From: Pseudomonadota bacterium
Lineage (GTDB): Bacteria > Desulfobacterota > Desulfobulbia > Desulfobulbales > JAHJIY01
NCBI GenBank assembly: GCA_018823175.1
Contig: JAHJIY010000004.1
Location: 1,963-65,962, forward strand
Length of the DNA: 64,000 nt
Direction: 5' to 3'
The notes under the pieces were generated by a model. That model made no database searches and was not told where the DNA came from. It worked only from the letters and a program-made list of their open reading frames with translations. The first letter of the stretch is position 1, and the number at the start of each line of letters is the position of its first letter. The translations under genes were made by a program, and so were the position numbers. Shown piece after piece: positions 32,356 to 49,188 of the stretch.

Positions 32356-32665
32356 TTCACCCTCTCTCAAGATTGACAAGCGATGATGCACATAGATTTT
32401 GATTATACAATTACCAATACTTAGTGCATTACACTACCAGTGAATATAAAACAAGTAAAGCATTAATCTGACTATAGAAAAGTCCTTTATTCACCAGATA
32501 ATAATTGAAATTACCAAATACCGGAAAGGCGGCATTTTTTTCAGGAATCAGCGACGGGCGCTAAGAAAAAGTCAAATTGCGCCCGATCTGACCCCGTCGG
32601 CAACCCGGGGAATTTATCAAGCCAGTTTTGACAGGCTGCCTCATTCTATTCCACACTGCCGGAGG

Positions 32666-33814
32666 TCAGACCGGAGTACGAACCAGTCCTAGCGCCAGAC
32701 GGGCGACCCGAGCGGAAACACCAGGTTCCCCAAGCAACGAACAGACCTCGGCCAACTGTTGCCTCATTTCGGCAACCCCTTCCCGGTCGGCCAAGAGCCG
32801 ATCAAGTTCATGATAGATCTTTTCGGGGGTGGCCTCGTCCTGCATAAACTCGGAAACAACTTTCTTGCCGGCAACCAGATTCACCAGGGAGGCATACTTA
32901 ACTTTAATCAGCCATCGACCCAACCGGTAAGTCATGGGAGAGACACGGTAGGCGACAAGCATCGGCACCCCCAGAATAGCCAGCTCAAGGGTAACCGTGC
33001 CGGAAGCCGCCATCACGGCATCACAAGCCGCCATCAGATTATAGCGGTTCCCGGAGACCACCCTGATATCGAGACCACAATCAGCCAGTCCGCTTTTCTC
33101 CAGATCAGCCTTTTTAATAGTAGAGGCTTGGGGCAGAAGAAAAACAAGGTTGTGGTGTTTAGCAACCAGTCGTTCAGCGGCGGCCAGGAAAATCGGCAAC
33201 ATCGCACTTACCTCTTTTTTGCGACTGCCGGGGAGAATTCCAATGACCCTTTTGTCGGGAGGGATAATATGTTCAGCCAGAAAAGCGGCCCGGTCCTTGG
33301 TCACCTCAACCGAATCAAGCAAGGGATGACCGACAAAATCGACCGACACCCCCCGTTGTCGGTAAAAATCACGCTCAAAAGGCAGGATTACCGCCATACC
33401 GTCAACCAGACGGCCAATCTTTTTGACCCGGCCACTGCGCCAGGCCCAGACCTGGGGACTTATATAATAAAAAATCGGGATCTTTAACCGCCTGGCCTTC
33501 TTGGCCAAAAGCAGATTAAAGTCAGGATAATCAATCAAAATAAGCAGATCGGGAGGTTTATCCTCCAGTCTTTTTTCAAGAGTTTTCAGGGCTGCCCTGA
33601 TATCAGACAGATGGGCAAACACTTCAAAAAGACCAACCACGGCAAGCTTGGAGGCATCATACAGGGTCTCAATACCCTGAGCCAGCAGATCTTTCCCTCC
33701 CATGCCACAGACCGACAGGCCCGGTTCAATTTCCTTCATGGCCCTGATCAGATTGGCGCCGTGCATATCCCCGGAAGCCTCGCCGGTGACAATCATGATA
33801 CTGGTTTCAGACAT
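32666..33814 (-). CDS. lpxB: Lipid-A-disaccharide synthase
   Basis: 382-aa ORF. IMIVTGEASGDMHGANLIRAMKE, LILIDYPDFNLLLAKKARRLKIPIFYYISPQVWAWR and GTVTLELAILGVPMLVAYR match LpxB. Confidence 0.9.
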   Translation of the reverse strand: MSETSIMIVTGEASGDMHGANLIRAMKEIEPGLSVCGMGGKDLLAQGIETLYDASKLAVVGLFEVFAHLSDIRAALKTLEKRLEDKPPDLLILIDYPDFNLLLAKKARRLKIPIFYYISPQVWAWRSGRVKKIGRLVDGMAVILPFERDFYRQRGVSVDFVGHPLLDSVEVTKDRAAFLAEHIIPPDKRVIGILPGSRKKEVSAMLPIFLAAAERLVAKHHNLVFLLPQASTIKKADLEKSGLADCGLDIRVVSGNRYNLMAACDAVMAASGTVTLELAILGVPMLVAYRVSPMTYRLGRWLIKVKYASLVNLVAGKKVVSEFMQDEATPEKIYHELDRLLADREGVAEMRQQLAEVCSLLGEPGVSARVARLALGLVRTPV

Positions 33815-35121: not shown

Positions 35122-35472
35122 ACTATCCCCCCCTAAAATGGAAGAACAAAGAATCATGAAACTGGCTAATATTTAGTAACGAAGTTATCGGAGAATAGGC
35201 CAATTACTAACAGTCACTGGTTAATCTGATGATAAATCAAGATATGAACCCAATAAACCATTAAATATTGACGATAAACAGGTCAATCATCCACAATTAA
35301 TTTCATGAAATATCAAGTTAATCTCAAGATATTCCAGCTGAGATATCACCAACCCATCACGACCAAACCAATGCCTGCCTGTATTTCAACCAGATTTCAC
35401 CCATAGATCAACATATAAAAAATAATTTCATATTTTATGTGCGACAAAATGTCACATATGTTATAGCTTTTC

Positions 35473-35536
35473 ATACGACATTGTGGTACCTTCTTATGCG
35501 ACAATGTGGTACTTCCTGATACGACACTGTGGTACC
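35473..35536 (+). promoter_or_regulatory. Three direct repeats of ATRCGACAnTGTGGTACY spaced exactly 23 bp apart (putative transcription-factor operator array)
   Basis: The repeats are ATACGACATTGTGGTACC (35473-35490), ATGCGACAATGTGGTACT (35496-35513) and ATACGACACTGTGGTACC (35519-35536), with CGACA starting at 35476, 35499 and 35522. A related site, TGCGACAAAATGTCACA, lies at 35440-35456. Confidence 0.6.
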
Positions 35537-35716
35537 AGGATCAGATTAATCAAATTTAAATGTTTAAAGTCAAGGGCAGTTTAATTTCAACGGGGAGGTG
35601 ACATGGATAAAAACAAGGCAGCGGGCAGTATCTATGGCAAATTTCGGCAAGATAGGAAGCGGTGTTGATCTTCACCTCTCCAGATGAATAATCGAACAAC
35701 TTTTCAAGGAGCAAAG

Positions 35717-38074
35717 ATGAGTAAGAGAAAAAAAACCACCTACAAGATTTTAGCGTTACTCTTATCAGTATTAATGATGAGTTTCACCATGATCAACCTG
35801 CAAGGCTGCGGCAGCGATGATGACGATCCGGTCCCCGTGGTTGATAACGGAGGCGGCGATACCGGCGGCGGAGACACCGGCGGCGATGGCGGCGGCGGAG
35901 CAACCGGGGTAACCACAGCGACAAATGTATTCCTTGATGGCATCCTGCCTGACACCAGATACACTTTTCTTCACGGTTCCACCAGCCCGGATAGTTCAAA
36001 ATTCTTTGTCTATGTTAATGACAATGATACTTCCGGTAAAATTGACATGTACATGTTAGACACCAATAGTGTTACGGCTGCAACCCCTGCCCTTGTTACC
36101 ACCGGCACAGCAACTGCTAGTGTAACCGGCGATGGTTCCGGCCCACAGGGCGCGACCATTTCATTCCGTTCTACCTGGGAAAACTCCGGCAGAAACATTT
36201 TGATGGCTGCTGCTGACCGTTTCTTCCTGATTGACGGCACTACCCTTCAACCATTAAACGGCGCTAACGGCGATGCCACTATCGGTGGAACTATCGAAGG
36301 TCAAAATCATGATGCAATGCCTACTGATGATGACCTTTACGCTATTTTGACCTTGCGGACTAAACCAAATGGCAGCAGCGGCAATACAGATGGCGCTATC
36401 CAGCTCTATGACTGTGTCAATAAAACTCCAATTGGTGAGCCTGTATCAGTATGTAACTCATGTCATGGTGATGACCGAGAATCAGTACTTTGTGGTCTTG
36501 ATGGTACCATTACCAACAATAATGATGGAACAGCTCCCGGTTATGGCGGAGCAGGAACCCCAGATACATATAGTGGAACGATCTACGTTGCAGGTCACGG
36601 CGCTCATTTTGCAAAAGTTACCTTTACCCTCGACCCCAACGATACCACGACCCCGTTTAAAAATTTAAGTACTGGCAGAATCAATGTAGCTTCAGCCGGC
36701 AACACCGGCTACCTGCTTCATGATGCTCGCCTGGATGGTACCGATCTCTACTGGTCTACTTACAAACTCGACAGAGATGGTCTCATTCATTACGGTAAAG
36801 TCGATCTGGCCAATGGTAATGCAGTTACCGATATCACCTATGCCCCGGATGTTCGCGCTGCTGGCACCGGATTGGCTCCTGGAACTGGTCCTTATTATTG
36901 TGCCTCTGGTCAGACCAGCGCTTACCATATGCCGATAACGATGACCAATGAAGCATATATCACAGTAATCCCTAAATCCACGGTTACTACTTCCGGCTCA
37001 AATGTCGCGGCGGCCAAATACTCCGGCACCGTTTATGTTGCTGGTCATGGCGCCCATATGGCCAAGGTAACAGTAAATATCGATACCGCCTCAGCTACAC
37101 CAGTTACCGTAAGCACCAGCAAAATCAATGTTGCCTCACCTGGTAACACTGACTATAAACTCCATGACGTCCGTAAGGACGGCGACATTCTTTACTGGTC
37201 AACCTATGGTATTGGCGCCGATGGGAATCTCCATTACGGCACAATCGATCTGGCCAATAATAATGCGGTAACTGACAACACTATTGCTCCAGCAGTCAGA
37301 GGAGGAGTCACCAGTATTGCCGCCGGAACAATGCCATATTACTGCGCTTCCGGTCTATCGGCAACAGCTCACATGCCGATCTCCATGAGCAACGAAGGCT
37401 ATGTCACAGTTATTCCAAAAGACGGTAGCGCGACGAGCCAGGTTTATATGGAAAGCTCCTTGGGCGCCGGCGGTACTGGCGGAGCTAACATCCCGGCTTC
37501 TTACTTTTACTTCCACGGTTCCACCAGTCCGGACCAGAGCAAATTCTTCATGAGCGTTAATGACGCAGGAACTCCGGGTAATTCAAATTTAATGATGTTC
37601 AACACCGATAGCATTGAAGCCGGCACCCCGGAACTGAACACTTCAGTTTCCAACAATCAGGCAACTGTAACCGGTGACGGGACAGGAGCGTATGGTGCAA
37701 CTATCACCTTCCGTTCCAACTGGGCTCCGGGCGCCAAGAAAATCATGCTGTCCGGTGCTGACCGATTCTACGTAATCAATGCTGATACTCTGGCAGTAGA
37801 AAACGGAACAGCCGGTGACAACACTGTTGGTGGTCAAAACCATGACGCCTTATCCACCAGTGATAGCAGATTCGCTCTCTTAACTCTCCGAACCAAACCC
37901 TATGAGGCTGCAGATGCTTCCAACACCAACCAGGACGGTGCAGTACAGCTCTATGATGTGATCAACGGCACTCCGATCGGCGAGCCGGTTTCGATCTGTA
38001 ACCAATGTCATAATGACAACACGATTGAAGCAGTTCTTTGTGGCATCGATGGAGCCTTGACACGTACCGAATAA
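35717..38074 (+). CDS. Novel lipoprotein with A-B-B'-A' internal duplication, two CXXCH heme-c motifs and conserved His/Cys/Met motifs
   Basis: The start is moved to the ATG at 35717, with an AGGAG ribosome-binding site 5 nt upstream. The signal and lipobox are MSKRKKTTYKILALLLSVLMMSFTMINLQGC, followed by a D/G-rich linker. The A domains (about nt 35910-36520 and 37500-38060) each end in PIGEPVS[VI]CN[SQ]CH...VLCG[LI]DG, with CXXCH at 36452-36466 and 37997-38011. The B domains (36568-36985 and 37019-37420) share YSGT[IV]YVAGHGAH, LHD, LYWSTY, HYG, PYYCASG and HMP[IS]. Confidence 0.8.
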   Translation: MSKRKKTTYKILALLLSVLMMSFTMINLQGCGSDDDDPVPVVDNGGGDTGGGDTGGDGGGGATGVTTATNVFLDGILPDTRYTFLHGSTSPDSSKFFVYVNDNDTSGKIDMYMLDTNSVTAATPALVTTGTATASVTGDGSGPQGATISFRSTWENSGRNILMAAADRFFLIDGTTLQPLNGANGDATIGGTIEGQNHDAMPTDDDLYAILTLRTKPNGSSGNTDGAIQLYDCVNKTPIGEPVSVCNSCHGDDRESVLCGLDGTITNNNDGTAPGYGGAGTPDTYSGTIYVAGHGAHFAKVTFTLDPNDTTTPFKNLSTGRINVASAGNTGYLLHDARLDGTDLYWSTYKLDRDGLIHYGKVDLANGNAVTDITYAPDVRAAGTGLAPGTGPYYCASGQTSAYHMPITMTNEAYITVIPKSTVTTSGSNVAAAKYSGTVYVAGHGAHMAKVTVNIDTASATPVTVSTSKINVASPGNTDYKLHDVRKDGDILYWSTYGIGADGNLHYGTIDLANNNAVTDNTIAPAVRGGVTSIAAGTMPYYCASGLSATAHMPISMSNEGYVTVIPKDGSATSQVYMESSLGAGGTGGANIPASYFYFHGSTSPDQSKFFMSVNDAGTPGNSNLMMFNTDSIEAGTPELNTSVSNNQATVTGDGTGAYGATITFRSNWAPGAKKIMLSGADRFYVINADTLAVENGTAGDNTVGGQNHDALSTSDSRFALLTLRTKPYEAADASNTNQDGAVQLYDVINGTPIGEPVSICNQCHNDNTIEAVLCGIDGALTRTE

Positions 38075-38099
38075 TCAACTATAAAATATGTAATCCTTA

Positions 38100-38135
38100 A
38101 AAGAGGGACGGCATTTTGCCGCCCCTCTTTTTTTT
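38100..38135 (+). terminator. Rho-independent terminator after the heme lipoprotein gene
   Basis: AGAGGGACGGC-atttt-GCCGCCCCTCT (10 of 11 positions paired) followed by T8, 26 nt after the stop codon. Confidence 0.85.
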
Positions 38136-38224
38136 AGCAAAAACTAATATCAAACTAAATTATCTTAAAACCTATTCACTACAAAATCTAGCAAGATCGT
38201 TACTTCCTCAGGTACCTAAAAAAA

Positions 38225-39430
38225 ATGCCCCTTTTAAAAATTGCCCTTAAAAATATCGGTCGCAAACGGTTCCGCAGTTTATCCATAATCCTGGCCGGCA
38301 CCCTGGCCTGTGGCCTGGTATTTACCGGAGCGATAACCCTGAAGTCAGTGCAGGATGGCCTAAAACAAGGGATGGCAAGGTTAGGAGCTGATATCATGGT
38401 GGTTCCAACCGGCTACGAGGCCAAAGGCAGCAAGATCCTTCTAGGCGGTGAACCCTCGGGCTTTTACATGGATGAACAGATTGAAGGAAAGATTGCAGAA
38501 GTAGACGGCGTTAGCCTAACGTCTCCGCAGCTCTTTATCACTTCTCTGAAAATAATTTGTTGTACCATGCCGACAGTCCAACTGGTTGGGATTGATCCAG
38601 CAACAGATTTCGCTGTAACCCCTTGGTTGAATTTCACAGTTAAAGATAAAGAAGCAAAATTTGATCCAATCACGGTGGGCTCAAATACCCTCTATGCGAC
38701 CGAAGGTATGTATATCTCTTTTTTCGGGAAAAGATTTCGGGTAGCAAGCGCCGCAGCCAAAACCGGTCTTAGATTTATTGATTATTCAGCCTTTATGACC
38801 ATGGATGTGGCGAGAAGTATGATTAATATTTCTCATACCAGTTCAGGAGAATCACTCCAAATCAAGGATGACGAGATATCAGCGGTCATGGTCAAGATTA
38901 ATTCGGATAAAGATGTTTATACCGTAGCCGCCAATATCGAGAAATCAGTACCTGGAGTTAAGACCATTATCAGCCGCAACCTAGTAACCACCATGAGAAA
39001 CGATGTTAAAGCATGCCTGTGGGGAATTGTCGTTGCAGGTATCTTGAGCTGGACCATGACCATTTTTCTGATGGGGTTGGTTTTTGCGATGGTGGTTAAT
39101 GAAAGACGCCGAGAACTTGGTCTACTCCGAGCCATGGGTGCCACCAAAAAAACTATGACCGAACTTATACTTTATGAGGCGGCGGTGCTTTCTGGAATTG
39201 GCAGTATTATCGGAGTTATTGGCGGATGGCTGGCACTAGACCGTTTAAAAATTCTAATTACCCTGGTTTATGGAACAGAGATCCAGTTTTTATGGCCTTC
39301 CCCATCCTTTACCTTTATGACTGCCCTCTGTTGTGGAATGGCCATCATATTCTCCTGCACGGCAACCGCCATCGGCCCCGCTATACGCGGCAGCAAGACT
39401 GAACCTTATGAAGCTATCCGCAAAGGATGA
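38225..39430 (+). CDS. FtsX-like (MacB/LolC-E type) ABC transporter permease, paralog 1
   Basis: 401-aa ORF. The N-terminus LLKIALKNIGRKRFRSLSIILAGTLACGLVF is followed by a periplasmic domain of about 230 aa and three C-terminal TM helices, with NERRRELGLLRAMGATKK (the FtsX signature). A vicinal Cys-Cys lies at 38558-38563. Confidence 0.85.
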   Translation: MPLLKIALKNIGRKRFRSLSIILAGTLACGLVFTGAITLKSVQDGLKQGMARLGADIMVVPTGYEAKGSKILLGGEPSGFYMDEQIEGKIAEVDGVSLTSPQLFITSLKIICCTMPTVQLVGIDPATDFAVTPWLNFTVKDKEAKFDPITVGSNTLYATEGMYISFFGKRFRVASAAAKTGLRFIDYSAFMTMDVARSMINISHTSSGESLQIKDDEISAVMVKINSDKDVYTVAANIEKSVPGVKTIISRNLVTTMRNDVKACLWGIVVAGILSWTMTIFLMGLVFAMVVNERRRELGLLRAMGATKKTMTELILYEAAVLSGIGSIIGVIGGWLALDRLKILITLVYGTEIQFLWPSPSFTFMTALCCGMAIIFSCTATAIGPAIRGSKTEPYEAIRKG

Positions 39431-39454
39431 GGGATTTTGTATGAGGAATAATCA

Positions 39455-40690
39455 ATGCAAGTAACTATCTCTGATCTGGCCAAGAAAAATATCCGTCGTA
39501 ATTTGTTCAGGAGCATCGCAATTGTTATGGGGGTCGCAGCAGCCACAGGGACCATTTTCTCCGTCTCCACTATAATGCAGTCGGTTAAATCAAGTTTGAC
39601 CCGAAGTGCGGCCCGTCTCGGATCCGACATTATCGTTGTCCCGGAGAAATACGGAAAAGAAGCCAAGGAAGCGATAGAAGAAGGAAAACCGATAGCCTTT
39701 TACATGGCCGGATCAACGCTTGAAAAGATCAAAGAAATCAGGATGTATCATCCTAAATTAAAAAAAAATATAAAGGTGGTGGATCTCGCTTCATCGCAAC
39801 TTTTCAAGCTTTCTTCCAAAACCGGCTGTTGTGATGTGGTCGGCAAATTATTAGTAGGTTTTGACCCAAACAATGATTTCAGTATTCTACCATGGTTGAA
39901 AAGTGGCAAAAAAGAAGAAATCAAAAGCAGTGAAATTTTAATCGGAGACAATATCCCGCATCAGGAAAACTTTAAGATTCAGTTGTTCGGCCAAATTTTC
40001 ACCGTTGCCGGCAAGCTTGAGCCCTCAGGCCATGAGTTTTTTGATAACTCAATATTTATGCTCCACTCCGATTTGCAGAATCTGATTTCAAAAACAGCAA
40101 CCCTTTTACCAGATGACCTCAGCTGGGACCAAGAAATAATATCCGCCATTCTGGTCAGGACCAACCCTCTAATCAACACCAGAAGAATAGCCAATCAGAT
40201 TGATCATGACGTTAAAGGCGTAAAGACCATCGTCGCCAAACAGGTACAAACCTCGGTCGGCAAACAGCTTTTCATGCTACTCAAGGCGGTTTTTCTGGCC
40301 GGTGCAGTATTATGGGTAATTGCGTTTCTCCTGATCGCGGTCATTTTCTCGATGATCGTCAATGAAAGAACTCGTGAAATGGGCCTGCTAAAAGCCATGG
40401 GCGCTCGAAGAGGGACCATTTTCCGCCTGACCGTAACCGAGGCATCCCTGCTCTCTTTTGCGGGCGGCAGTCTCGGGATAATATTTGGCGGCACACTTCT
40501 TTTTGTCCTTAAAAGCAATGTTGAGGCCGCCTTTGCTATTCCTTTTCAGTGGCCGAGCTTTCTTAACTTTCTATTGCTGACCTCAACTTGTTTGACCTTG
40601 GGAATTATAACCGGGGTAAGTGCTGCCTTACTGCCTGCGATCCGCTGCAGTGCTCTGGAACCGAGCGTGGCGTTAACCAAGGGGGATTAA
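39455..40690 (+). CDS. FtsX-like (MacB/LolC-E type) ABC transporter permease, paralog 2
   Basis: 411-aa ORF with LAKKNIRRNLFRSIAIVMGVAAATG and NERTREMGLLKAMGARRG. A vicinal Cys-Cys lies at 39827-39832, in the same relative position as in paralog 1 (CC x8-9 LVG[IF]DP). A GAGGA ribosome-binding site is present. Confidence 0.85.
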   Translation: MQVTISDLAKKNIRRNLFRSIAIVMGVAAATGTIFSVSTIMQSVKSSLTRSAARLGSDIIVVPEKYGKEAKEAIEEGKPIAFYMAGSTLEKIKEIRMYHPKLKKNIKVVDLASSQLFKLSSKTGCCDVVGKLLVGFDPNNDFSILPWLKSGKKEEIKSSEILIGDNIPHQENFKIQLFGQIFTVAGKLEPSGHEFFDNSIFMLHSDLQNLISKTATLLPDDLSWDQEIISAILVRTNPLINTRRIANQIDHDVKGVKTIVAKQVQTSVGKQLFMLLKAVFLAGAVLWVIAFLLIAVIFSMIVNERTREMGLLKAMGARRGTIFRLTVTEASLLSFAGGSLGIIFGGTLLFVLKSNVEAAFAIPFQWPSFLNFLLLTSTCLTLGIITGVSAALLPAIRCSALEPSVALTKGD

Positions 40691-40697
40691 ACAAAGA

Positions 40698-41987
40698 ATG
40701 AGGGGAAAGACTGATCAAAAACCTGGCCTCCGTTTCCTACCCTTTGACCGTCTCCGCTATCTGATCATAATATTAGTGGTTTTACAGCATGCCGCTAATA
40801 GTTACGGCAACCTGGTGCCATGGTGGTATGTTCGCGACCCTTATCCTTCTTTAAATCCGTTTTTTGATTTGTTCCGACAATTGCCGGATATCATTATGAT
40901 GCCGGTTCTCTTTTTTTTAGCCGGCTTTTTCGCCTTACCATCTTTGAGAGAAAAAGGATTGGGAGCATTCCTTTGGGATAAATGTACCCGACTGCTTTGG
41001 CCCGGGTTTATCTGTGTCACCCTGATAGCACCTATAATCAACTATATCTACCATGTTTCGCGATCAGACATTTACTCGCAAAATGGCTATTTCTTCTACT
41101 GGTTCTCTTTTATAAGGGATTCAGGACGGTTCCATATTGGCTTTATTGAATCAATGGACCAGTTCAGTCATAATTTTCTCTGGTTTGTTTCCCTGCTTTT
41201 TTTCTTTTTCCTGTTTTTTGCAGTAGGCCATACGATCAAAGGAAAGCTAGCATCAAGAAAATTGTCTACTTTCAACCAGCGCTTACAGATGAATAACGAA
41301 GCAATTAACCATGACCCAAAATCTTTCGGCTTGCAAAGGTGTTATTCGTGGATAATTATCCTAAGTGTCGGTTTCATCAGCTCTTTGAGTTATTATATAA
41401 TAAATTCATTTATGCCTTATGAACGCTGGATAATTATCTGCAATGTCATCCAGTTTCAATCCCCAAGACTGATCGTCTATATTTCTTATTTCAGCCTGGG
41501 AATTTATGCCTATACACAACAATGGTTTTTAAAAAAATCTCCCCCTGGCAAACTTCTTTTCTGGGGCAGTTTAACTGTTGTTCTCATCTCCATATACTTT
41601 TCTCTCCAACAGCAATTTATCAATGGCATCAACCAACCTGGAGTTAGCTTATTGTACAGTTTCACCCGTTACTTTTTATGCCTAAGTTTCTTGTTTTTCT
41701 TACTTTTACTAACCTATCGCTATTTTGCACAACCGTCGAAAAAACATAATTTTCTCGCAGAACATTCATATTATGTTTACCTGACCCACCTTCTATTAGT
41801 TGTCTCGTCTCAGTTATTTTTCAGTCAATTTCACGGACTCTTAACGATAATCAAGTTCTGTTGTGTTTTTAGTTTTTCAATCATCTGCAGTTATCTTATT
41901 AGTTGTTTTCTTCTTAAACCATTTCCCCGAGTTTCCTTGATTATCATATTTGTTTCCTGTCTAGTCTTGGGCGCTGCAACCTCTTAG
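40698..41987 (+). CDS. Acyltransferase family 3 (OafA/OpgC-like) integral membrane protein
   Basis: 429-aa ORF starting 7 nt after the preceding stop. FLPFDRLRYLIIILVVLQHAANSY is the typical N-terminal motif. There are about 10 hydrophobic helices. Confidence 0.75.
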   Translation: MRGKTDQKPGLRFLPFDRLRYLIIILVVLQHAANSYGNLVPWWYVRDPYPSLNPFFDLFRQLPDIIMMPVLFFLAGFFALPSLREKGLGAFLWDKCTRLLWPGFICVTLIAPIINYIYHVSRSDIYSQNGYFFYWFSFIRDSGRFHIGFIESMDQFSHNFLWFVSLLFFFFLFFAVGHTIKGKLASRKLSTFNQRLQMNNEAINHDPKSFGLQRCYSWIIILSVGFISSLSYYIINSFMPYERWIIICNVIQFQSPRLIVYISYFSLGIYAYTQQWFLKKSPPGKLLFWGSLTVVLISIYFSLQQQFINGINQPGVSLLYSFTRYFLCLSFLFFLLLLTYRYFAQPSKKHNFLAEHSYYVYLTHLLLVVSSQLFFSQFHGLLTIIKFCCVFSFSIICSYLISCFLLKPFPRVSLIIIFVSCLVLGAATS

Positions 41988-42096
41988 AATCAAAAAAACA
42001 AACTCTATATTGGTATAAGGATGGATTAAATGTTCAATGGGGACCGAAAGCCCTTCGAGCCTATTCATGGTGTAAGAGTAAGAGGTCTCCAAAAGA

Positions 42097-42585
42097 TCAT
42101 TTCTTCTGAATTTTCTTACGCTTTCCCCTGACACAACGACAATAATATTTGTTCTTCCATTGCATAGCCACTAATCTATCATCCGAACTTTTCACCGAAG
42201 AATCATCGCCAAAATTCACATAGAACGACATCTGGTCATAATAAGGTAATTCAGTACCCGTCCAATATCTTGCGGACTTTGTCTTTGGGAATAAATCTTG
42301 AGTAATGGCAGGGTATTTATCCCCCTCGTTTAGAATGGTTCGAAGTTCGTAATGATTTGGCAGACGCCAATCATCATACCCTGCATACGAAAGGTTAAGA
42401 CAATAATCTTTGGCCGCTTTCCAATCACGAGTAATGTTATCGTCAACGCGTTGCCAAACCAACCCCGTCAAATTACTGGTCAGGATCAAATCGTTCTTCA
42501 CAACATAATCACCAGCGACTGCCGGGAGAGATAATAAAAGAGAAAGGACTACAGCCGAAACCCCCAAAAACAATTTTCTTTTCAT
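42097..42585 (-). CDS. Secreted DUF1566 (Lcl C-terminal domain) protein
   Basis: The start is moved to the ATG at 42585 (MKRKLFLGVSAVVLSLLLSLPAVAGD). TGLVWQRVDD...WKAAKDYCLNLSYAGYDDWRLPNHYELRTIL is the DUF1566 core. Confidence 0.7.
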   Translation of the reverse strand: MKRKLFLGVSAVVLSLLLSLPAVAGDYVVKNDLILTSNLTGLVWQRVDDNITRDWKAAKDYCLNLSYAGYDDWRLPNHYELRTILNEGDKYPAITQDLFPKTKSARYWTGTELPYYDQMSFYVNFGDDSSVKSSDDRLVAMQWKNKYYCRCVRGKRKKIQKK

Positions 42586-42779
42586 AGTTAAATCCTGAAA
42601 AAGGTAATAAAAAAGTTTAAGCATTCAGACATTATCAAAGCATTAAAAAAACATTAATTTTTAACCTAATTTTAGGGATTAGCTAACCCACAGCACTATA
42701 CCAGCAGAACATAATATTTTGCTCTTTTCAATCGTAAAAAATTGTCAAAAAACCCATACAGGGAAGGGAGATCATCGTA

Positions 42780-43322
42780 ATGAAAAGAAATGCGGTTCTG
42801 GTTATTTTATTGCTGACAATCTTATTTACCAACGGTTGCGGCACCGAACTCATCCAAAGAGCCGAATCAAATTATCTTGCCCGGGACTATCAGCCAGCGG
42901 CCCAGCTGTTTGACCTTTATCTGACCGATCATCCTGACGCATTTGTGGCCAGAAGGAGGTTAGGCCACGCATTATTAAAAACCGGCCACCCCCGGGAAGC
43001 CGCTTTTCAATTTGAAAAAGTCATCGCCAGCCACCCCGGCGATTCATTATCCTACCTCTATCTCGGACTGACCTACCTGCACCTGGCTGATTATCCAAAA
43101 ACCATGGCGGCCTGGCAGCAATACGAAGCCATCGGCAAGCCACTGATCATCAGCGAAGTCAACCGTCAAACACCTCTGATCACTGAGGCCATCCAAAAGA
43201 ACTTACCTGACGATGGCTTAAATGATCTGGCCAAAAAAATCGAATCGGCCATTGAACAGGCAATAAGCGCCGATCAACTGCGAAACGATTACAACAGATC
43301 CCGTCTTGGAGAGTGCGGCTGA
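42780..43322 (+). CDS. TPR-repeat protein, probable lipoprotein
   Basis: 180-aa ORF with a GGGAAGGGAG ribosome-binding site. The N-terminus is MKRNAVLVILLLTILFTNGC. TPR-like units are YLARDYQPAAQLFDLYL, RRRLGHALLKTGHPREAAFQFEKVI and YLYLGLTYLHLADYPKTMAAWQQY. Confidence 0.65.
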   Translation: MKRNAVLVILLLTILFTNGCGTELIQRAESNYLARDYQPAAQLFDLYLTDHPDAFVARRRLGHALLKTGHPREAAFQFEKVIASHPGDSLSYLYLGLTYLHLADYPKTMAAWQQYEAIGKPLIISEVNRQTPLITEAIQKNLPDDGLNDLAKKIESAIEQAISADQLRNDYNRSRLGECG

Positions 43323-43381
43323 TGACCATTTTGAAGCCGGTCCGGCTTCAAAAAAAAAAGGTAAAATAACTTTCATTTTCT

Positions 43382-43425
43382 ACCACACTGTGGTATTTAC
43401 AATTTTTATCGCACTTTGGTAATTT
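43382..43425 (+). promoter_or_regulatory. Two copies of the ACAnTGTGGTA-type motif overlapping a candidate sigma70 promoter upstream of the porin gene
   Basis: ACCACACTGTGGTAT (43382-43396) matches the 35.5-kb repeat at 11 of 13 core positions. TCGCACTTTGGTAAT (43409-43423) is a weaker copy. TTTACA (43396-43401), an 18-nt spacer and TAATTT (43420-43425) form a possible -35/-10 pair. Confidence 0.4.
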
Positions 43426-43539
43426 TGCTCGGAAATCGAGCATGTTTAGCCTTAAGACCCTTTACAAGTAATTAAAGCATTGCGTGAACAAACGGGAGGA
43501 AACAAATTTATGAATCCAAAAACAAACGGGGAAATTGGT

Positions 43540-44766
43540 ATGAAGATTCGAAAAATCGGTAAATATTGCGCTCCTTTTCTGGCACTTGCCATGCTGGCCT
43601 CTCCATTAGCAAATGAAGCCCAGGCCGGGCCAAGTATTGAGTTTGGAGATGACGGTCAAGGTATCCTGAAGATTGATTACAAGGCCCAGTTCCAGGTTGT
43701 TTCCCGTGACACCGGTTCCGGCGAAACCGGCGACGATGCCACCAATACCATGGGCTTCCGGCGCAATCGTCTGGCGTTTATCGGGGCCTGGGGCGATATG
43801 TACGGCATATATGTCCAGACCGATTACTTTGAAAATACCGCAATCTCAACCTTAGGTCAAAATACCACCTCATACGATCCATCCGATGATTACTTTTCCC
43901 TGATCGACGCTCAGATTCGGATAAAGTTCAACGACATGGCCCATCTGCGGGTCGGCAAGTTTAAAGCTAACCTCACCCGGGAAAACCTGGAAGACTGTTA
44001 TCAACCACTGACCCTTGATCGTTCGAAATTCCTGGCCGAGCCCTTTGTCATTTCCAGAGATATCGGCATGAGCCTATGGGGCAATCTGGTTGACAATAAA
44101 GTACAATACAAGATTGACTTACTGGAAGGCAAGCCAGCCAAACAAGTTTCGGGTAACACTGGTGATACCCTGGGCTCCAATTTCCGCTACTCCGGCCGGG
44201 TCCATGTTTCCCTGCTGGAACCTGAATCAGGTTATGGCTATCGCGGCACTTACCTCGGCACCAAAAAGGTGTTGACCATCGGCGCCGCCATGCAGCATGA
44301 AGACGATCTGGTTTACAAAAATGACAATAAGGACGGCGCCGAAAGCTATAACGCCTACACCGTTGATCTCTTTACCGAAATTCCGGTTCCCGCCGTGGGA
44401 ACCTTTACCCTGTCGGCCGCTTACGCCGATTTTGACTTTGGTGACCGGGGCCTCAACAGTGACAATACCCTCGGCAATGATGCTGCCTCCAACAAAGGCG
44501 GCGAAAGAGATGGCTATTACGTCAAAGCCGGCTATATGCTGCCCACCCTGCCGCTGCAGATCTTCGGCCGGATGGAGACCTGGACCTTTGCCGAACTTAA
44601 CGGCATTATGGACCATGAACTCAACTGGATGGGAGTTGGCGCCAACTACTACGTCAGAAACCAGGACGTAAAAGTAACTCTGGAATATTCCACCGTGCAG
44701 TTTGACGACCGGGATACCGCTGATGATATTTCAACCATCGTGGCCCAGCTTCAGTTTATGTACTAA
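43540..44766 (+). CDS. Outer-membrane beta-barrel porin
   Basis: The ATG at 43540 gives MKIRKIGKYCAPFLALAMLASPLANEAQA; the ATG at 43510 is an alternative start. Amphipathic beta-strand patterns alternate throughout. The C-terminus ...VAQLQFMY ends in an aromatic residue, which is the OMP beta-signal. Confidence 0.7.
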   Translation: MKIRKIGKYCAPFLALAMLASPLANEAQAGPSIEFGDDGQGILKIDYKAQFQVVSRDTGSGETGDDATNTMGFRRNRLAFIGAWGDMYGIYVQTDYFENTAISTLGQNTTSYDPSDDYFSLIDAQIRIKFNDMAHLRVGKFKANLTRENLEDCYQPLTLDRSKFLAEPFVISRDIGMSLWGNLVDNKVQYKIDLLEGKPAKQVSGNTGDTLGSNFRYSGRVHVSLLEPESGYGYRGTYLGTKKVLTIGAAMQHEDDLVYKNDNKDGAESYNAYTVDLFTEIPVPAVGTFTLSAAYADFDFGDRGLNSDNTLGNDAASNKGGERDGYYVKAGYMLPTLPLQIFGRMETWTFAELNGIMDHELNWMGVGANYYVRNQDVKVTLEYSTVQFDDRDTADDISTIVAQLQFMY

Positions 44767-44792
44767 AAAATCAAGCTAGACAGTCCCCAAAA

Positions 44793-44831
44793 GGCGCGGT
44801 ATACAAAGATTGTATGCCACGCCTTTTTTTT
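44793..44831 (+). terminator. Rho-independent terminator after the porin gene
   Basis: GGCGCGGTATACAA-aga-TTGTATGCCACGCC followed by T8. Confidence 0.8.
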
Positions 44832-44925: not shown

Positions 44926-46728
44926 ATGCCAGGCCGACTTATTTCAAGAAAAAGGTCCCACAAAGGTAAAATGAGCAGGTCGATTCTTCAAAAACCACGC
45001 CAGAAATCAAACCATAGTCTAATCCACAGCGAAGATGCTATCTCGCCGGCCTCATTCTTGAAAAACCATTATTTTGCATATCTTCTGGCCGCGCTTTTCT
45101 CTCTGCTCCTCCCGATAATTCTCTATCACTACCGGACGCTGGACAACAATGCCCTCTGCCGCTGGCCCTGGGTCTTTGCCGACGGCCCCCCCTTAAAATC
45201 ATGGGCCTTGCTGCTGATAATTACCTTGGTCGCCTTTTTCCTGGCCAGTCGTTCCTGGCCTAAAAACAAACCGGTTTTTCTCTTTCTTTCCGCCTTAATT
45301 ATCGGCGTCTCCTTGTGGGGCGAACCGGAGATTATCATGGATGCCTCGCGATATTTCACCCAGGCCAAATATCTTGAGGTTAACGGAATAAGCGCCTTCT
45401 GGCATGGCTGGGGAAATGAATTATCCGCCTGGACCGACCTCCCCCTGGTCCCTTTTATTTATGGACTTGTCCTCACCGTCTTTGGTGAAACGAGAATATT
45501 TATTCAGGCCCTTACCACCTTGTTTTTTGTCGGTTCCGTATGGTTCACCTATCTGCTGGCCCGAGATCTGTGGGATGAGGAAACAGGCTTGCTGGCCGGG
45601 CTGCTTCTTCTTTGCTATCCTTATCTACTGCTCAATATCCCGCTGATGATGGTTGATCTGCCCACCATGTTTTTTATGGTCCTGACTGTTTACACCTTCT
45701 GCCTGGCCCTGCAGACCGACACTCCCTTGCCGATTCTGGCAGCCGCTCTGGCGATATTCTGCACCTTCTGGGCCAAATATTCGACCTGGATTCTGCTCAG
45801 TATCCTACCGGTGATCTTTCTGGTCTACTACAAATCAGATCCTCAAAAAACCAGACGTCGGGCCTTTTATACGATAACGATTACCCTTGTCCTGATTCTC
45901 CCGCTGGTCATTAGTCTTTGGGAGGTGATCAATGACCAGATCAGACTGCTTCTTGACTACCAGCGCCCCGGTCTACAAAAATGGTCCGAAGGATTTATCT
46001 CCACTTTTTTCTTTCAGATCCATCCCCTGGTTACTCTCTCAGCCTTATTTGGGACCTGGATTGCCCTGCGCAAAAAGGACCGAAAATTCATTATTCCTCT
46101 CTATCTCATAATGGTGCTGGTCCTTGTCCTGCAGGTCAAGAGGATCCGCTACCTGATGCCGATTTTTCCGATGCTGGCGATCACTGCTGCATACGGTCTA
46201 CGCCAACTCGCCGATCAACGGTTGCAAAGATTCCTGATGCTTTCCACTCTGGGCGCCGCCCTGATTTTGACCTTCGGCTCATATCTTCCCTTTACCGGGC
46301 AACTCAGCGCCGCCAATCTCAAAAATGGCGGCCGCTTTCTTGATACCATAAGTCCGACCAGCATCGCGATTTATACCGTCCCGCAAAAGGCAAAAGATGT
46401 TAATCTCAAGATTAATGTCCCGATTCTGGATTTGTTTACGCAAAAAAAGCTATACTTACTGAGCGACCCGGCCGAGCAGAGTCCTGAAGTTAACCAGACC
46501 TCATCCTTCCGGTTCAGCTGGGAACAGGATCTGCCTGATTTCTATGATCCTCTGCCCGCCAGACCGGCAAACGGACCGGACCCGCTGGTCATTATCTCAT
46601 CAGGCCCCTTGACTAAACTGCCGCCCTTGATCCGGGAAAAGATGGCCGGACACCGTCAGGTTAAATCATTTAACCGGAGTAGCGGACTCTTCACCTATAA
46701 AACATTCGTGACCATTTATTATGACTGA
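44926..46728 (+). CDS. ArnT/PMT-like (GT39/GT83-type) polyprenyl-phosphate-sugar-dependent glycosyltransferase, polytopic membrane protein
   Basis: 600-aa ORF with an AAGGGGAAGG ribosome-binding site and more than 10 TM helices. DASRYFTQAKYL...PLVPFIYGLVLTVFGETRIFIQALTTLFFVGSVWFTYLLARDLW matches the N-terminal catalytic loop and helices of the ArnT family. The C-terminal soluble domain is about 130 aa. Confidence 0.6.
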   Translation: MPGRLISRKRSHKGKMSRSILQKPRQKSNHSLIHSEDAISPASFLKNHYFAYLLAALFSLLLPIILYHYRTLDNNALCRWPWVFADGPPLKSWALLLIITLVAFFLASRSWPKNKPVFLFLSALIIGVSLWGEPEIIMDASRYFTQAKYLEVNGISAFWHGWGNELSAWTDLPLVPFIYGLVLTVFGETRIFIQALTTLFFVGSVWFTYLLARDLWDEETGLLAGLLLLCYPYLLLNIPLMMVDLPTMFFMVLTVYTFCLALQTDTPLPILAAALAIFCTFWAKYSTWILLSILPVIFLVYYKSDPQKTRRRAFYTITITLVLILPLVISLWEVINDQIRLLLDYQRPGLQKWSEGFISTFFFQIHPLVTLSALFGTWIALRKKDRKFIIPLYLIMVLVLVLQVKRIRYLMPIFPMLAITAAYGLRQLADQRLQRFLMLSTLGAALILTFGSYLPFTGQLSAANLKNGGRFLDTISPTSIAIYTVPQKAKDVNLKINVPILDLFTQKKLYLLSDPAEQSPEVNQTSSFRFSWEQDLPDFYDPLPARPANGPDPLVIISSGPLTKLPPLIREKMAGHRQVKSFNRSSGLFTYKTFVTIYYD

Positions 46729-48181
46729 TAAAATGAAATGCGCTATCGTCGTTCCCGCCTGGCTGCCGGAAGATATATTTTCCCAAAAAACCGCCGGTTC
46801 CCAGATTAATTACTGGCAGCCGCTCGGCACCTTGTATGTCGCCGCCTCCCTGCTTGAGGCCGGGCATCAGGTCGATTTCTTAAACGGCGCCTTCCTTTCC
46901 CACGACCAGATCATGGCCCAACTTGCCGAGTTGAAGCCGGAAGTGGTCGGTCTCTACTCAACTACCTTCGGTTGGGACCGGGCGATGAAAACGGCGGCGG
47001 CGATCAAGGCTTTTGATCCTAAAATTTTTGTGGTGGTCGGCGGCCCATATGCGGTGGCCGTTCAAGAAAAATGTCTGGAGGATTGCCCTGATCTTGATGC
47101 AGTAGTCACCGGTGAAGGAGAAATCACCATGCGTGAACTCCTGGCCCATCTGGCTGATCAGCGGCCGCTCCTCGGTCTGGAAGGACTGGTCTTCAGGGAC
47201 AACGGCAAGATCGTCAAAAACGAGCCCCGCCCCCTGATTACCGACCTTGACCGCATCCCTTTTCCGGCCCGGGAACTGCTCGGTGATAGCTGGCGTTATA
47301 TCCCACCGCCCGCCACTTACCGACGAAAACCGGTGGCGGTGATCATGACCTCGCGAGGATGCAACCGCAAATGTCTCTATTGTTTCCAGATCGATAAATA
47401 CCGTAAAAGCGGGATCAGATACCGCAGTATCGAAAATGTAATGGCGGAGATTGAGCTGGTCTTGGCTCAAGGATATCGCGAAATAAAATTTATTGACGAC
47501 ACCCTGGCCGCCGACTATGAGCGGGCTATGGCAATCGCCAACGAAATCAAGCGCCGCAAGCTCGATTTCACCTGGTTTGTCTCGGCCTGCGTCAATCAGG
47601 TTGACAAAAAACTGCTCACGGCCTTTAAGGAGGCCGGTTGTTGGGCCATCCTGTTCGGGGCCGAAAGCGGCGTCCAGAAAAATCTCAATTCCATCCGCAA
47701 AGGAATTACGGTCGGGCAGATAGAAAAAGCGGTCAAGGCCGCCAAAGAAGTTGGTTTGTTCGTCTATACCCCTTTTCTCTTCGGGATCCCCGACCAGACC
47801 TTTGAAGATGGCCTCAAGACCATTGAATTTGCCTGCCGCCTTGATCCGGACATCGCAAATTTTCATGCGATCACCCCATTTCCCGGCACCGAACTTTATG
47901 ACAATCTTGAAAAATACGGCACCATGTCAAAGGAACTCAGCGACTTTACTTACCAGGGAGCGGCCTTTGTCCCATTCACCATGACCAGGGAGGAGATTCA
48001 AACCCTGCGCCAGCTGGCCTTCAGAAAATTCTATGGCCGGCCCAGCTATATGTTTAAAAGATTTTTAAAGTTGCGAAACGCCAATGATATCCGGGCCGCG
48101 GTCCTTGGGCTAAAAAGCCTGTTATGGCTCTGGCTGAAACGTGGCATCTTCCATCGTTATGACGGGAGTGGCGAGGGCTGA
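46721..48181 (+). CDS. B12-binding-domain radical SAM protein (class B)
   Basis: The ORF overlaps the upstream stop by 8 nt. The N-terminal cobalamin-binding Rossmann-like region reads VVGLYSTTFGWDRAMKTAAAIK...FVVVGGPYA. The radical SAM cluster motif is SRGCNRKCLYCF (CxxxCxxC). Confidence 0.85.
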   Translation: MTDKMKCAIVVPAWLPEDIFSQKTAGSQINYWQPLGTLYVAASLLEAGHQVDFLNGAFLSHDQIMAQLAELKPEVVGLYSTTFGWDRAMKTAAAIKAFDPKIFVVVGGPYAVAVQEKCLEDCPDLDAVVTGEGEITMRELLAHLADQRPLLGLEGLVFRDNGKIVKNEPRPLITDLDRIPFPARELLGDSWRYIPPPATYRRKPVAVIMTSRGCNRKCLYCFQIDKYRKSGIRYRSIENVMAEIELVLAQGYREIKFIDDTLAADYERAMAIANEIKRRKLDFTWFVSACVNQVDKKLLTAFKEAGCWAILFGAESGVQKNLNSIRKGITVGQIEKAVKAAKEVGLFVYTPFLFGIPDQTFEDGLKTIEFACRLDPDIANFHAITPFPGTELYDNLEKYGTMSKELSDFTYQGAAFVPFTMTREEIQTLRQLAFRKFYGRPSYMFKRFLKLRNANDIRAAVLGLKSLLWLWLKRGIFHRYDGSGEG

Positions 48182-49182
48182 TGACGGCAGGAATTTCAGT
48201 CATCATTCCGGTCCATAACGGCGGTGACGATTTCAGGCAATGTCTTGAAGCTCTGGCAACCAGCCAACCGCCCCCGGAGGAGATTATCGTGGTGGCCGAT
48301 GGCGAAAGCGACGGAAGCTGGCGTCTGGCTTATGATTTCCAGGTCAGGGTTATTAACCTGCCCACCCCGTCCGGCCCGGCTCACGCCCGCAATCTCGGGG
48401 CCCAAACCGCAACCGGTGAAATTCTGCTATTTATCGATGCCGATGTTCTGGTCCGCCCGGATACCGTGGCTATGGTCCGGGACTATTTCCATAATCATCC
48501 GGCAGTCAGCGCAATTATGGGTTCATACGATGACACCCCGACTGCGACCAATTTTCTTTCTCAATACCGGAACCTTTTTCATCACTATACCCACCAGACC
48601 GGCGCTATTGAGGCCTCGACTTTCTGGACCGGATGCGGCGCAATCCGGGCTGATGTATTTAGAAAAATGGGCGGCTTTGACCAGAACAGATGCCGACCTC
48701 TGAGCAGGGCCTGCCCGGGAACCATTGAGGATGTCGAACTGGGCTACCGCTTAAAAGAGAGCGGCCATTCAATTCATCTTTTAAAAGAGCTGCAGGTCAA
48801 ACATCTGAAACGCTGGGACTTAAGATCAATAATCCGCACGGATTTTTTCTACCGGGCCCTGCCCTGGACGGAATTACTCTTGACCAGGGGCCGGATGATC
48901 AATGACCTCAATCTTAAGAAACAAACTCGTCTCAGTATTGTTTTGATCTTCAGCTTAATCACCTGTATTCTTGCCCTGCTTGTCGGGACGCCAACCGGAA
49001 CAGTCGCCATTATCCTGAGCTTGCTCTTGCTCCTGATTAACTGGAGATGCTATAGTTTCTTTTATCAAAAAAGAGGACTTCGGTTTGCCGCCCTGGTCAT
49101 TCCCTGGCACTGGCTTTATTTCTTTTACAGCGGCATTGCCTATATCTACGGGTCCATCCTGTTCAGACTGAAGAAAAGGTAA
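48181..49182 (+). CDS. GT2-family glycosyltransferase with C-terminal TM helices (ArnC/DPM-synthase-like architecture)
   Basis: There is a TGATG overlap with the upstream gene. ISVIIPVHNGGDDFRQCLEAL, IIVVADGESDGS and LFIDADV (the DxD motif) are present. Two C-terminal hydrophobic helices follow. Confidence 0.8.
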   Translation: MTAGISVIIPVHNGGDDFRQCLEALATSQPPPEEIIVVADGESDGSWRLAYDFQVRVINLPTPSGPAHARNLGAQTATGEILLFIDADVLVRPDTVAMVRDYFHNHPAVSAIMGSYDDTPTATNFLSQYRNLFHHYTHQTGAIEASTFWTGCGAIRADVFRKMGGFDQNRCRPLSRACPGTIEDVELGYRLKESGHSIHLLKELQVKHLKRWDLRSIIRTDFFYRALPWTELLLTRGRMINDLNLKKQTRLSIVLIFSLITCILALLVGTPTGTVAIILSLLLLLINWRCYSFFYQKRGLRFAALVIPWHWLYFFYSGIAYIYGSILFRLKKR

Positions 49183-49188
49183 ATCAAT

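Follow-up and report, generated by a model that had tools for sequence, protein, structure and literature searches.

Seven genes at 35.4-44.8 kb of a 64-kb stretch of DNA from a Desulfobulbales bacterium (contig JAHJIY010000004.1; the whole stretch is referred to here as the window) encode, in this order, a double beta-propeller lipoprotein with two CxxCH haem motifs, two FtsX-type permeases, an integral-membrane acyltransferase, a secreted Lcl_C protein, a small tetratricopeptide repeat (TPR) lipoprotein and an outer-membrane porin of the ExtI family. Genes were called from a listing of open reading frames (ORFs) and from Pfam and NCBIfam domain scans, which reproduced the seven genes and the order given in an initial annotation of this DNA. 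All seven products are extracytoplasmic or membrane proteins, as that annotation had also stated, judging from signal peptides, lipoboxes and transmembrane segments recognised by eye and by hydropathy. Parts of this cluster resemble several described systems.

The extHIJKL cluster of Geobacter sulfurreducens is related through its porin. Geobacter ExtI adjoins the rhodanese lipoprotein ExtH and is needed for normal selenite and tellurite reduction (PMC5877670, PMC6148476), extI mutants being more sensitive to both compounds (PMC5877670), and non-orthologous proteins often take the place of its lipoprotein partner (PMC6148476). In the window, similarly, an ExtI-family porin is accompanied by a lipoprotein of redox or sulfur type and by a small accessory protein, and relatives of its propeller are fused to, or lie beside, rhodaneses. 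However, ExtJ, the rhodanese ExtH and the pentahaem selenoprotein ExtKL are all missing, with no rhodanese or multihaem gene in the cluster; a haem propeller and FtsX permeases are found instead, and a palindromic operator contrasts with the divergent LysR gene of Geobacter (PMC6148476).

A second parallel is the NosZ/NosDFY-NosL system of N2O reductase, in which a periplasmic propeller redox enzyme is likewise encoded beside a dedicated ABC (ATP-binding cassette) system. In NosDFY, ATP hydrolysis powers the delivery of a cofactor in the periplasm. Copper for the CuZ centre of NosZ, itself a propeller, is supplied by the lipoprotein chaperone NosL (PMC6530538, PMC8457098). As in NosZ, conserved histidine residues probably form a ring in the propeller of the window, and some relatives of the present cluster encode NosL. 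On the other hand, the permease here is of the FtsX type and not NosY/ABC-2, NosL is missing from the window and from Desulfobulbales-type clusters, and the propeller is six-bladed, with CxxCH and two invariant cysteines and without a NosZ or CuA Pfam signature. The combination of NosZ with NosD, NosF and NosY is not found: the cluster lacks NosD, and the NosD-like gene at 15161-16075 lies 20 kb off and is unlinked.

The permeases share with the type VII ABC systems (MacB, LolCDE, FtsEX, YtrEF) the FtsX C-terminal domain, four transmembrane segments and a large extracytoplasmic domain between the first and second of these. Relatives have a cognate LolD/MacB-type ATPase, and a heterodimer of paralogues would recall LolC/LolE. 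However, the periplasmic domain has no counterpart among the solved members and contains an invariant Cys-Cys pair, no membrane-fusion protein adaptor is encoded, and the cognate ATPase is absent from the window.

The cluster also recalls MtrCAB and the Pcc conduits (OmbB-OmaB-OmcB) in that genes for an outer-membrane barrel and a haem lipoprotein share one cluster and the bacterium has many multihaem cytochromes, and a new kind of porin-cytochrome system had been suggested for it. In the Mtr/Pcc sense this does not hold, since there is one haem motif per propeller and no periplasmic multihaem partner. No other cytochrome gene occurs between 35.4 and 44.8 kb, the barrel belongs to Porin_O_P/ExtI and has about 400 residues, and two haem motifs in 796 residues are too sparse for a haem wire. 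Finally, the succession of a TPR gene and an outer-membrane barrel gene in the window, together with a cargo-like lipoprotein gene, resembles Slam systems, but the barrel is not of the DUF560 family, the TPR protein is a separate small lipoprotein, and in distant relatives it travels with the ABC/propeller operon and not with a barrel.

A conserved propeller-permease core

Neighbourhoods of homologues (numbered loci, L001 onwards) were retrieved and all window proteins were mapped onto them by tblastn. Desulfobulbales-type loci comprised the window, L001 (the same as L008), L004, L005/L006/L007, L009, L010, L012, and L014 with L019, which are two halves of one locus. The genes for the lipoprotein and the two FtsX permeases are present in every one of them, with the Lcl_C gene and an unassigned gene inserted between the lipoprotein gene and the FtsX pair in L001. 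In 12 of 15 independent informative loci the propeller gene is followed by an FtsX gene, either immediately or, in L001, within two genes; propeller loci without FtsX are L002, L003 and L013. This linkage spans Desulfobulbales-type relatives (51-63% identity), Nitrospirota (30-34%) and more distant relatives (25-30%).

The Nitrospirota loci (L015, L016, L018 and L020) encode a single-unit propeller, one FtsX permease, an ABC ATPase and a DUF4418 protein in direct succession, the propellers having a signal peptide or anchor without a canonical lipobox. Distant operons (L022-L024) have the order propeller (with CxxCH), FtsX, NosL (in L023), DUF4418 (not in all), TPR lipoprotein and ATPase, and their propellers match Pfam Cytochrom_D1 above threshold. 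In a wider survey, metagenomes were scanned with an FtsX alignment, which yielded further propeller-FtsX-ATPase operons (L051, L059 and L061) and a much wider family of DUF4418-FtsX-ATPase loci without a propeller. The conserved core is narrower and older than the initial annotation had assumed and consists of a CxxCH propeller gene followed by the gene for a Cys-Cys FtsX permease.

The remaining genes are distributed less evenly. The acyltransferase gene follows the FtsX pair in the window, L005/L006/L007, L009 and L012, and is absent from L001, L004 and L014. Lcl_C is present in the window, L001, L004, L005, L012 and L014, on either strand and in varying positions, and orthologues of the TPR lipoprotein occur in the window, L001, L004, L009, L012 and L014. 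The ExtI gene is present in the window, L001, L006, L009, L012 and L019, usually divergent and upstream, unlike in the window, where it is downstream. Since order and strand vary, this pattern reflects retention of the set and not frozen synteny. The expectation that the genes co-occur across genomes was thereby borne out in Desulfobulbales-type contigs, with accessories missing from some loci; the acyltransferase and the Lcl_C protein appear to be accessories specific to this lineage.

The beta-propeller lipoprotein

The central protein has the lipobox LQGC and a Gly/Asp/Thr-rich tether after the lipid-anchor cysteine. Searches of the protein and of family profiles against Pfam, NCBIfam and PDB sequences gave no meaningful match, the protein itself having no Pfam or NCBIfam hit; hits to antibody heavy chains and WD40 proteins were dismissed as noise. 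Among 1.84 billion cluster representatives (50% identity), only 98 belong to the family at E<=1e-3, which makes it a rare one.

Each unit of about 360 residues comprises two segments, A and B, found in the arrangements A-B, B-A, A-B-A-B and A-B-B'-A'. Most relatives are A-B-A-B and the single units of Nitrospirota are B-A, whereas the window protein and P0002 are A-B-B'-A', so that the two propellers of the window protein are circularly permuted relative to each other. Such natural permutation of units is allowed by the closure of the propeller. An AlphaFold2 model of a single unit shows six four-stranded blades, with a predicted local distance difference test score (pLDDT) of 87.3 and a predicted template-modelling score of 0.90; the full-length model has a pLDDT of 74.9.

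There is one CxxCH per propeller (VCNSCH and ICNQCH). As the motif is invariant in alignments of 25 and 27 unit sequences, and is found in nearly all full-length members, the protein is very probably a c-type haem protein, in keeping with the redox lipoprotein that had been placed at the centre of the system. Further invariant positions in each unit are a cysteine ten residues after the motif, H458, H494-D-x-R, C554, M568, H611, R677, H720-D721 and R736. In the model, six invariant residues (C786, H494, C554, H611, R677 and H720) are spread over the six blades, one to a blade, at the beginning of the first strand or close to it. In a propeller of the usual geometry these first strands are probably the innermost, which would set the six residues in a circle about the central channel, beside the haem motif. 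Such a ring of invariant His, Cys and Arg residues suggests a catalytic, possibly metal-containing, centre beside the haem.

Fusions and neighbours of the propellers point to sulfur chemistry and to the cell surface. For example, P0017 is a rhodanese-rhodanese-HYR-propeller fusion and adjoins an MtrC-like cytochrome, and in L013 (Ca. Sulfobium) a separate rhodanese lipoprotein, 86% identical to the P0017 rhodanese, is encoded directly after the propeller gene. Other family members are fused to fn3, HYR, SdrD_B and MopE-motif domains, which gives them the look of cell-surface proteins. An apparent fusion of the P0016 propeller to an Lcl_C-like domain was not used, as it matched Fib_succ_major at 22.8 against a threshold of 33.9 and showed no similarity to the window Lcl_C protein in BLASTP.

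Two observations concern the tether. In L001, the closest relative (9714-12172, 63% identity), two ORFs are called for the lipoprotein gene. They part within the tether-encoding stretch, a long tandem repeat of GGAGATACCGGT (GDTG), and the likely cause is a slip in assembly, a frameshift or phase variation of the repeat. The tethers of these lipoproteins are Thr/Gly/Asp-rich, with poly-Thr in P0009 and L019.

The FtsX-type permeases and their ATPase

Hydropathy analysis places four transmembrane segments in permease 1, with a periplasmic domain of about 220 residues between the first and second. Permease 2 is a paralogue (about 32-36% identical), with a MacB_PCD periplasmic domain and the same Cys-Cys pair, and is probably its heterodimer partner. 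This periplasmic pair (C112-C113 in FtsX1) is invariant in the permeases, and was seen in 64 of 87 FtsX matches overall. In a PDB profile search the best relatives were YtrF, MacB, LolF/E and FtsX, those closest to the transmembrane domain being MacB and YtrF-type exporters, and the periplasmic domain matched no solved Lol or MacB domain. Scores against the NCBIfam lolCE model TIGR02212 (45.4 and 25.4 bits) are far below its cutoff of 362.

FtsX permeases require an ABC ATPase. The initial annotation had noted that none is encoded, and a tblastn search with a cognate ATPase and a search for LSGGQ and Walker A motifs in six frames found none in the 64-kb window. Relatives do encode one, directly downstream of the homologous permeases in L015, L016, L018, L020, L051, L059 and L061, beside the permease of L021, and nearby in L001; the Nitrospirota ATPases are 50-52% identical to the latter. 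Consequently, of the proposal that the cluster is a self-contained, co-regulated module, conservation and co-regulation stand, supported by the operator described below and by recurrence, and self-containment does not. The ATPase of the FtsX pair must be encoded elsewhere in the genome. In addition, no Pfam domain of a membrane-fusion (HlyD-family) adaptor or a TolC-type duct was found in the cluster or in the related loci inspected.

Beyond the propeller loci, FtsX proteins with a periplasmic S-x3-CC motif, a LolD-like ATPase and the Cys-containing membrane protein DUF4418 form a widespread ABC subfamily (L021-L100) that appears uncharacterised. Example loci are L023 5971-9338, L026 3533-9438, L030 1853-7745 and L041 5992-8625. 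Neighbours of the Cys-Cys FtsX genes include NosL in L023 (49.7 bits) and L041 (47.6 bits), two cupredoxins in L026, a multicopper oxidase in L030, and a rhodanese with an MtrC-like cytochrome in L054. The Cys-Cys/DUF4418 subfamily has also been reported from Bifidobacterium, a Gram-positive.

A palindromic operator at two promoters

A recurrent motif, CGACAnTGTGGTA, had been reported at both ends of the cluster and taken as a sign of co-regulation. It proved to be half and a little more of a 15-bp palindrome, TACCACAnTGTGGTA. With one mismatch or fewer, ACAnTGTGGTA matched 9 times against 2.7 expected, a count reached in none of 100 shuffles. At three mismatches or fewer, the full palindrome is limited in the window to two places: ahead of the lipoprotein gene, at 35474, 35497 and 35520, and ahead of the porin gene, where a perfect copy at 43381 is accompanied by a weak one at 43407. 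The three upstream copies probably form a binding array for a regulator.

The same arrangement recurs in relatives. The palindrome precedes the lipoprotein gene in all seven Desulfobulbales-type loci with upstream sequence, about 300 bp upstream in L001, L005/L006, L009, L010, L012 and L019, and precedes the porin gene in six of six loci, 75-200 bp upstream of ExtI in L001, L006, L009, L012 and L019. Elsewhere in the related 6-22-kb loci, a single extra match with three mismatches was found, in L012. Since the palindrome recurs before these two genes and almost nowhere else, shared regulation of the lipoprotein and porin promoters is well supported, and the shuffles and the scans of related loci dispose of the concern that the motif might be non-specific. 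In L004 the palindrome also precedes a second, single-unit propeller gene, followed by genes for an FtsX permease, a HisKA_3 kinase and a GerE-type response regulator; the last two are the sole candidate regulators seen.

Between the array and the lipoprotein gene lies a conserved untranslated leader of about 160 nt, and the position of the array upstream of it suggests an activator site. The leader (35560-35716 in the window, 5470-5630 in L006, with equivalents in L009, L010 and L012) contains a strong Shine-Dalgarno-like GGGAGGTGA, a complementary CCTC stretch downstream and a small GC hairpin. A consensus fold of five sequences is weakly supported (-16 kcal/mol, 4 covarying pairs), and no Rfam family matched anywhere in the window, the leader included; the leader could be a cis-regulatory RNA. 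A 21-codon ORF within it (35604-35669), previously listed as a leader ORF, is not kept among the aligned relatives, L006 reading ATG GGA TAA and L009 lacking an ATG there, and the idea of a leader peptide was therefore dropped. Visual inspection of the sequence downstream of the array revealed no correctly spaced sigma-54 promoter motif.

The ExtI-family porin

The porin is a clear member of the ExtI family by its profile matches, scoring 504.8 bits against NCBIfam NF040900 (porin_ExtI, cutoff 150) over model positions 5-403 of 403, and Pfam Porin_O_P aligns over its full length. Given this family membership and a size of about 400 residues, a role as solute channel is more plausible than the one previously assigned to it, that of housing the 75-kDa double propeller. 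Most relatives have a gene for an LPG_synthase_TM (UPF0104) membrane protein as the immediate upstream neighbour of ExtI; both genes are on one strand, and the operator separates them (Table 1).

Proposed function and alternatives

The explanation of the whole that we favour, with moderate confidence, is an envelope module under a shared regulator, in which a haem propeller enzyme is serviced by a type VII ABC machine and supplied through an anion porin. The six-bladed propeller, here in a tethered double-propeller lipoprotein, would be a periplasmic or surface redox enzyme with one c-type haem motif per propeller. A dedicated machine of the MacB/LolCE/FtsX class would be functionally coupled to it; the coupling of the genes is observed, and the mechanism is conjectural. 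Its permease would be a heterodimer of the two FtsX paralogues, each contributing a periplasmic Cys-Cys pair, and ATP hydrolysis in the cytoplasm would drive periplasmic work on the propeller enzyme rather than lipoprotein transport. This work may be to deliver or insert a cofactor or substrate of thiophilic character (copper, sulfur species or both), in the way that NosDFY-NosL services the propeller of N2O reductase. The ExtI-type anion porin, controlled by the same regulator, would pass an anionic substrate or product across the outer membrane, a sulfur or selenium species being the best guess, and the TPR lipoprotein would probably be part of the ABC/propeller complex.

Several points weigh against this explanation. 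Foldseek searches with the full-length and single-unit models returned generic propellers at template-modelling scores of 0.48 or lower, and profile matches to thiocyanate dehydrogenase, at E 0.1-0.5, are not significant. The placement of the invariant residues round the central channel is read from strand order, and the binding of haem, the metal content, the substrate and the location of the protein are likewise deductions. No regulator gene lies in the cluster, and no ATPase gene is found near the FtsX pair in the window, L004 (first module), L005, L006, L009, L012 or L014, so that the pair could work differently from single-FtsX systems. Neighbouring NosL, cupredoxin and multicopper oxidase genes were seen in just 4 of about 80 loci, none of them Desulfobulbales-type. 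Moreover, the fusions to fn3, HYR, SdrD_B and MopE domains would fit surface export better than a periplasmic location.

This last point leads to the alternative that survives best, a surface-lipoprotein pathway proposed in the initial annotation, which we nevertheless regard as rather unlikely. The FtsX pair would extract the lipoprotein from the inner membrane in the manner of LolCE, the TPR protein and ExtI would expose it at the cell surface in a Slam- or ExtH/ExtI-like way, and the acyltransferase would modify the lipoprotein or its glycan. Such a pathway would account for the lipoprotein nature of the central and TPR proteins in all Desulfobulbales-type loci, the long Gly/Asp/Thr tether behind the lipid-anchor cysteine and the surface-type domains of relatives, as well as for the cohesin, Big and invasin surface proteins encoded next to the propeller in L002. 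LolE and LolF are among the best solved relatives of the permeases, the TPR lipoproteins of L022-L024 give weak matches to Pfam TPR_Slam, and ExtI is reportedly involved in the localisation of the lipoprotein ExtH in Geobacter, to go by the title of a 2019 paper. However, the propeller-FtsX-ATPase combination is kept in Nitrospirota, where the propeller lacks a canonical lipobox, and the Cys-Cys FtsX and DUF4418 are common without propellers, even in a Gram-positive, which makes lipoprotein export by these permeases improbable. The low lolCE score, a periplasmic domain unlike any solved Lol or MacB domain, and a barrel of about 400 residues that is of the Porin_O_P type and not DUF560/Slam argue in the same direction, and we know of no role for a Cys-Cys pair in Lol-type extraction.

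Readings based on efflux or on coincidence are less likely still. A MacB-like pump might expel a thiophilic toxicant (e.g., Cu(I), polysulfide/S0 or reduced selenium) from the periplasm or the outer leaflet, with the propeller transforming it and the porin serving as exit. The similarity of the transmembrane domain to MacB and YtrF-type exporters, the copper proteins and NosL near related pumps, the greater sensitivity of Geobacter extI mutants to selenite and tellurite (PMC5877670) and an inducible-looking operator array suited to a stress response are all compatible with detoxification. Nevertheless, an HlyD-type adaptor or a TolC-type duct is missing from every cluster examined, Porin_O_P channels are diffusion pores and not pump ducts, and a tight, ancient tie to one enzyme family would be unusual for such pumps, so this seems a poor prospect. 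That the genes form no functional unit, being neighbours kept by descent in close genomes with an incidental motif, is very improbable: the complete set was seen in one lineage only (Desulfobulbales-type metagenome-assembled genomes) and the acyltransferase, Lcl_C, TPR and porin genes are each absent from some loci, but the set is retained while the porin gene moves between upstream-divergent and downstream positions and Lcl_C changes strand and place, the core pair persists to about 25-30% identity in other phyla, and the palindrome tracks both genes wherever they have moved and in L004 precedes a second propeller-FtsX unit.

A bolder version of the favoured explanation is offered tentatively and is itself doubtful. 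The propeller could found a new class of extracytoplasmic metallo-haem enzyme, with a His/Cys-lined (perhaps copper-sulfur cluster) centre wired to a c-type haem, and this centre would be assembled or supplied by an ATP-powered machine of a new kind (Cys-Cys FtsX, ATPase, DUF4418 and TPR proteins, with or without NosL) that would be analogous, not homologous, to NosDFYL; in Desulfobulbales, together with ExtI, it would make up a new sulfur/selenium respiratory or detoxification module.

Literature searches on the system, on DUF4418 and on the Desulfurivibrionaceae context found no description, which agrees with the initial view of the system as apparently undescribed. Every accessory part can be assigned to a known superfamily, and the porin to a family that already has a name; the literature searched gives no account of the propeller family, of the Cys-Cys FtsX/DUF4418 subfamily or of their joint occurrence with ExtI under one operator. 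If the favoured explanation is right, a rare family without a Pfam, NCBIfam or solved-structure relative would gain a function as a probable redox enzyme of sulfur-cycling Desulfobulbales and Nitrospirota, and the widespread ABC subfamily with periplasmic Cys-Cys FtsX and DUF4418 would gain its first functional context. It may also join NosDFY as a second example of ABC machinery whose task is not to move a solute but to service a propeller enzyme in the periplasm. Furthermore, the theme of an ExtI porin with a variable lipoprotein would reach beyond the relatives of Geobacter, and a clean palindromic operator with a two-promoter regulon should make the inducing condition and the regulator findable by experiment.

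Accessory genes and genomic surroundings

The coordinates of the cluster and of associated features are collected in Table 1. TPR lipoproteins of similar size are encoded inside the distant propeller-FtsX-ATPase operons L022, L023 and L024. The Lcl_C gene is often flanked by genes for Peptidase_M60 (enhancin-like) proteins or for unassigned lipoproteins of about 470 residues, which hints at a side function in glycan binding or glycan processing.

Table 1. Positions of the cluster genes, regulatory elements and associated regions (window coordinates unless a locus is named)
Feature	Position	Strand	Remarks
Lipoprotein, double beta-propeller	35684..38074, probable start 35717	+	796 aa (785 aa from 35717); lipobox LQGC; two CxxCH
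FtsX-type (type VII ABC) permease 1	38225..39430	+	Pfam FtsX 63.5 bits
FtsX-type permease 2	39455..40690	+	Pfam FtsX 63.4 bits; MacB_PCD 30.9 bits
Acyl_transf_3 integral-membrane acyltransferase	40698..41987	+	Pfam 63.8 bits
Secreted Lcl_C (DUF1566) lectin-like protein	42097..42624	-	Pfam 88.8 bits
Small TPR lipoprotein	42780..43322	+	Domain scan
ExtI-family outer-membrane porin (Porin_O_P superfamily)	43480..44766, probable start ATG 43540	+	NF040900 504.8 bits; Pfam Porin_O_P
Related palindrome GCGACAAAATGTCAC, upstream site 0 of array	35441..35457		Kept as GTGCGACAAnnTGTCACATGTG in L006, L009, L010, L012, L019
Three tandem imperfect palindromes TACGACAnTGTGGTA (35474, 35497, 35520)	35474..35534		23-bp spacing
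Conserved untranslated leader, about 160 nt	35560..35716	+	DNA alignment, blocks CAACGGGAGGTGACAT ... TTCGCCTCGCCAG
Perfect palindrome TACCACACTGTGGTA (43381-43395) and weak site (43407-43421)	43381..43421		Upstream of porin gene
Block of PMT_2 (GT-C) glycosyltransferase, B12-binding radical SAM (HpnJ/BchE-like), GT2 and amine-oxidase/phytoene-desaturase-like genes	44926..50961	+	
Lcl_C-flanking regions	L005 7631-10764; L001 12960-14405; L014 3423-4820		
LPG_synthase_TM (UPF0104) gene	L006 4035-4988; L009 8116-9093; L012 8316-9296; L019 8406-9392	- (all)	No counterpart in the window

The terminators that had been assigned to individual genes are consensus-type matches, 11 being found in the region against 11.3 expected from shuffles. 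A perfect GC hairpin (GAAGCCGG/TCCGGCTTC) does lie at 43322-43360, directly 3' of the TPR stop codon; with T4 on its 5' side and A10 on its 3' side, it would terminate minus-strand and not plus-strand transcription.

Downstream of the porin gene, the four-gene block listed in Table 1 adjoins the ExtI gene in five genomes (the window, L001 2831-8841, L009 2-4850, L012 10-5900 and L019 585-6496) and is possibly associated with the module; no copy of the operator was found in it. The combination of GT2 and GT-C enzymes follows the logic of ArnC/ArnT or Ppm/Pmt. With the Thr/Gly/Asp-rich tethers of the lipoproteins, O-glycosylation of the tether or modification of lipid A is conceivable.

A partnership with a giant cytochrome encoded 23 kb away had also been considered. 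This ORF (3835-12564, minus strand) encodes a secreted multihaem protein of about 2,900 residues with 58 CxxCH motifs, but no copy of the operator precedes it, and related loci have nothing comparable close to the module, so that nothing ties it to the cluster. Downstream of this divergent gene, a CarboxypepD_reg/DUF4198-like gene and the NosD-like gene, the latter coding for a right-handed beta-helix protein, occupy 13962-16075 on the plus strand and show no detectable link to the module. Elsewhere in the window, a gene at 53390-57229 (plus strand) encodes a 1,279-residue protein of the AsmA/YhdP family, a putative intermembrane lipid-transport bridge, and the same envelope-rich neighbourhood contains lpxB (32666-33814) and a gene for an OmpA/PorE-like lipoprotein (30283-32391).

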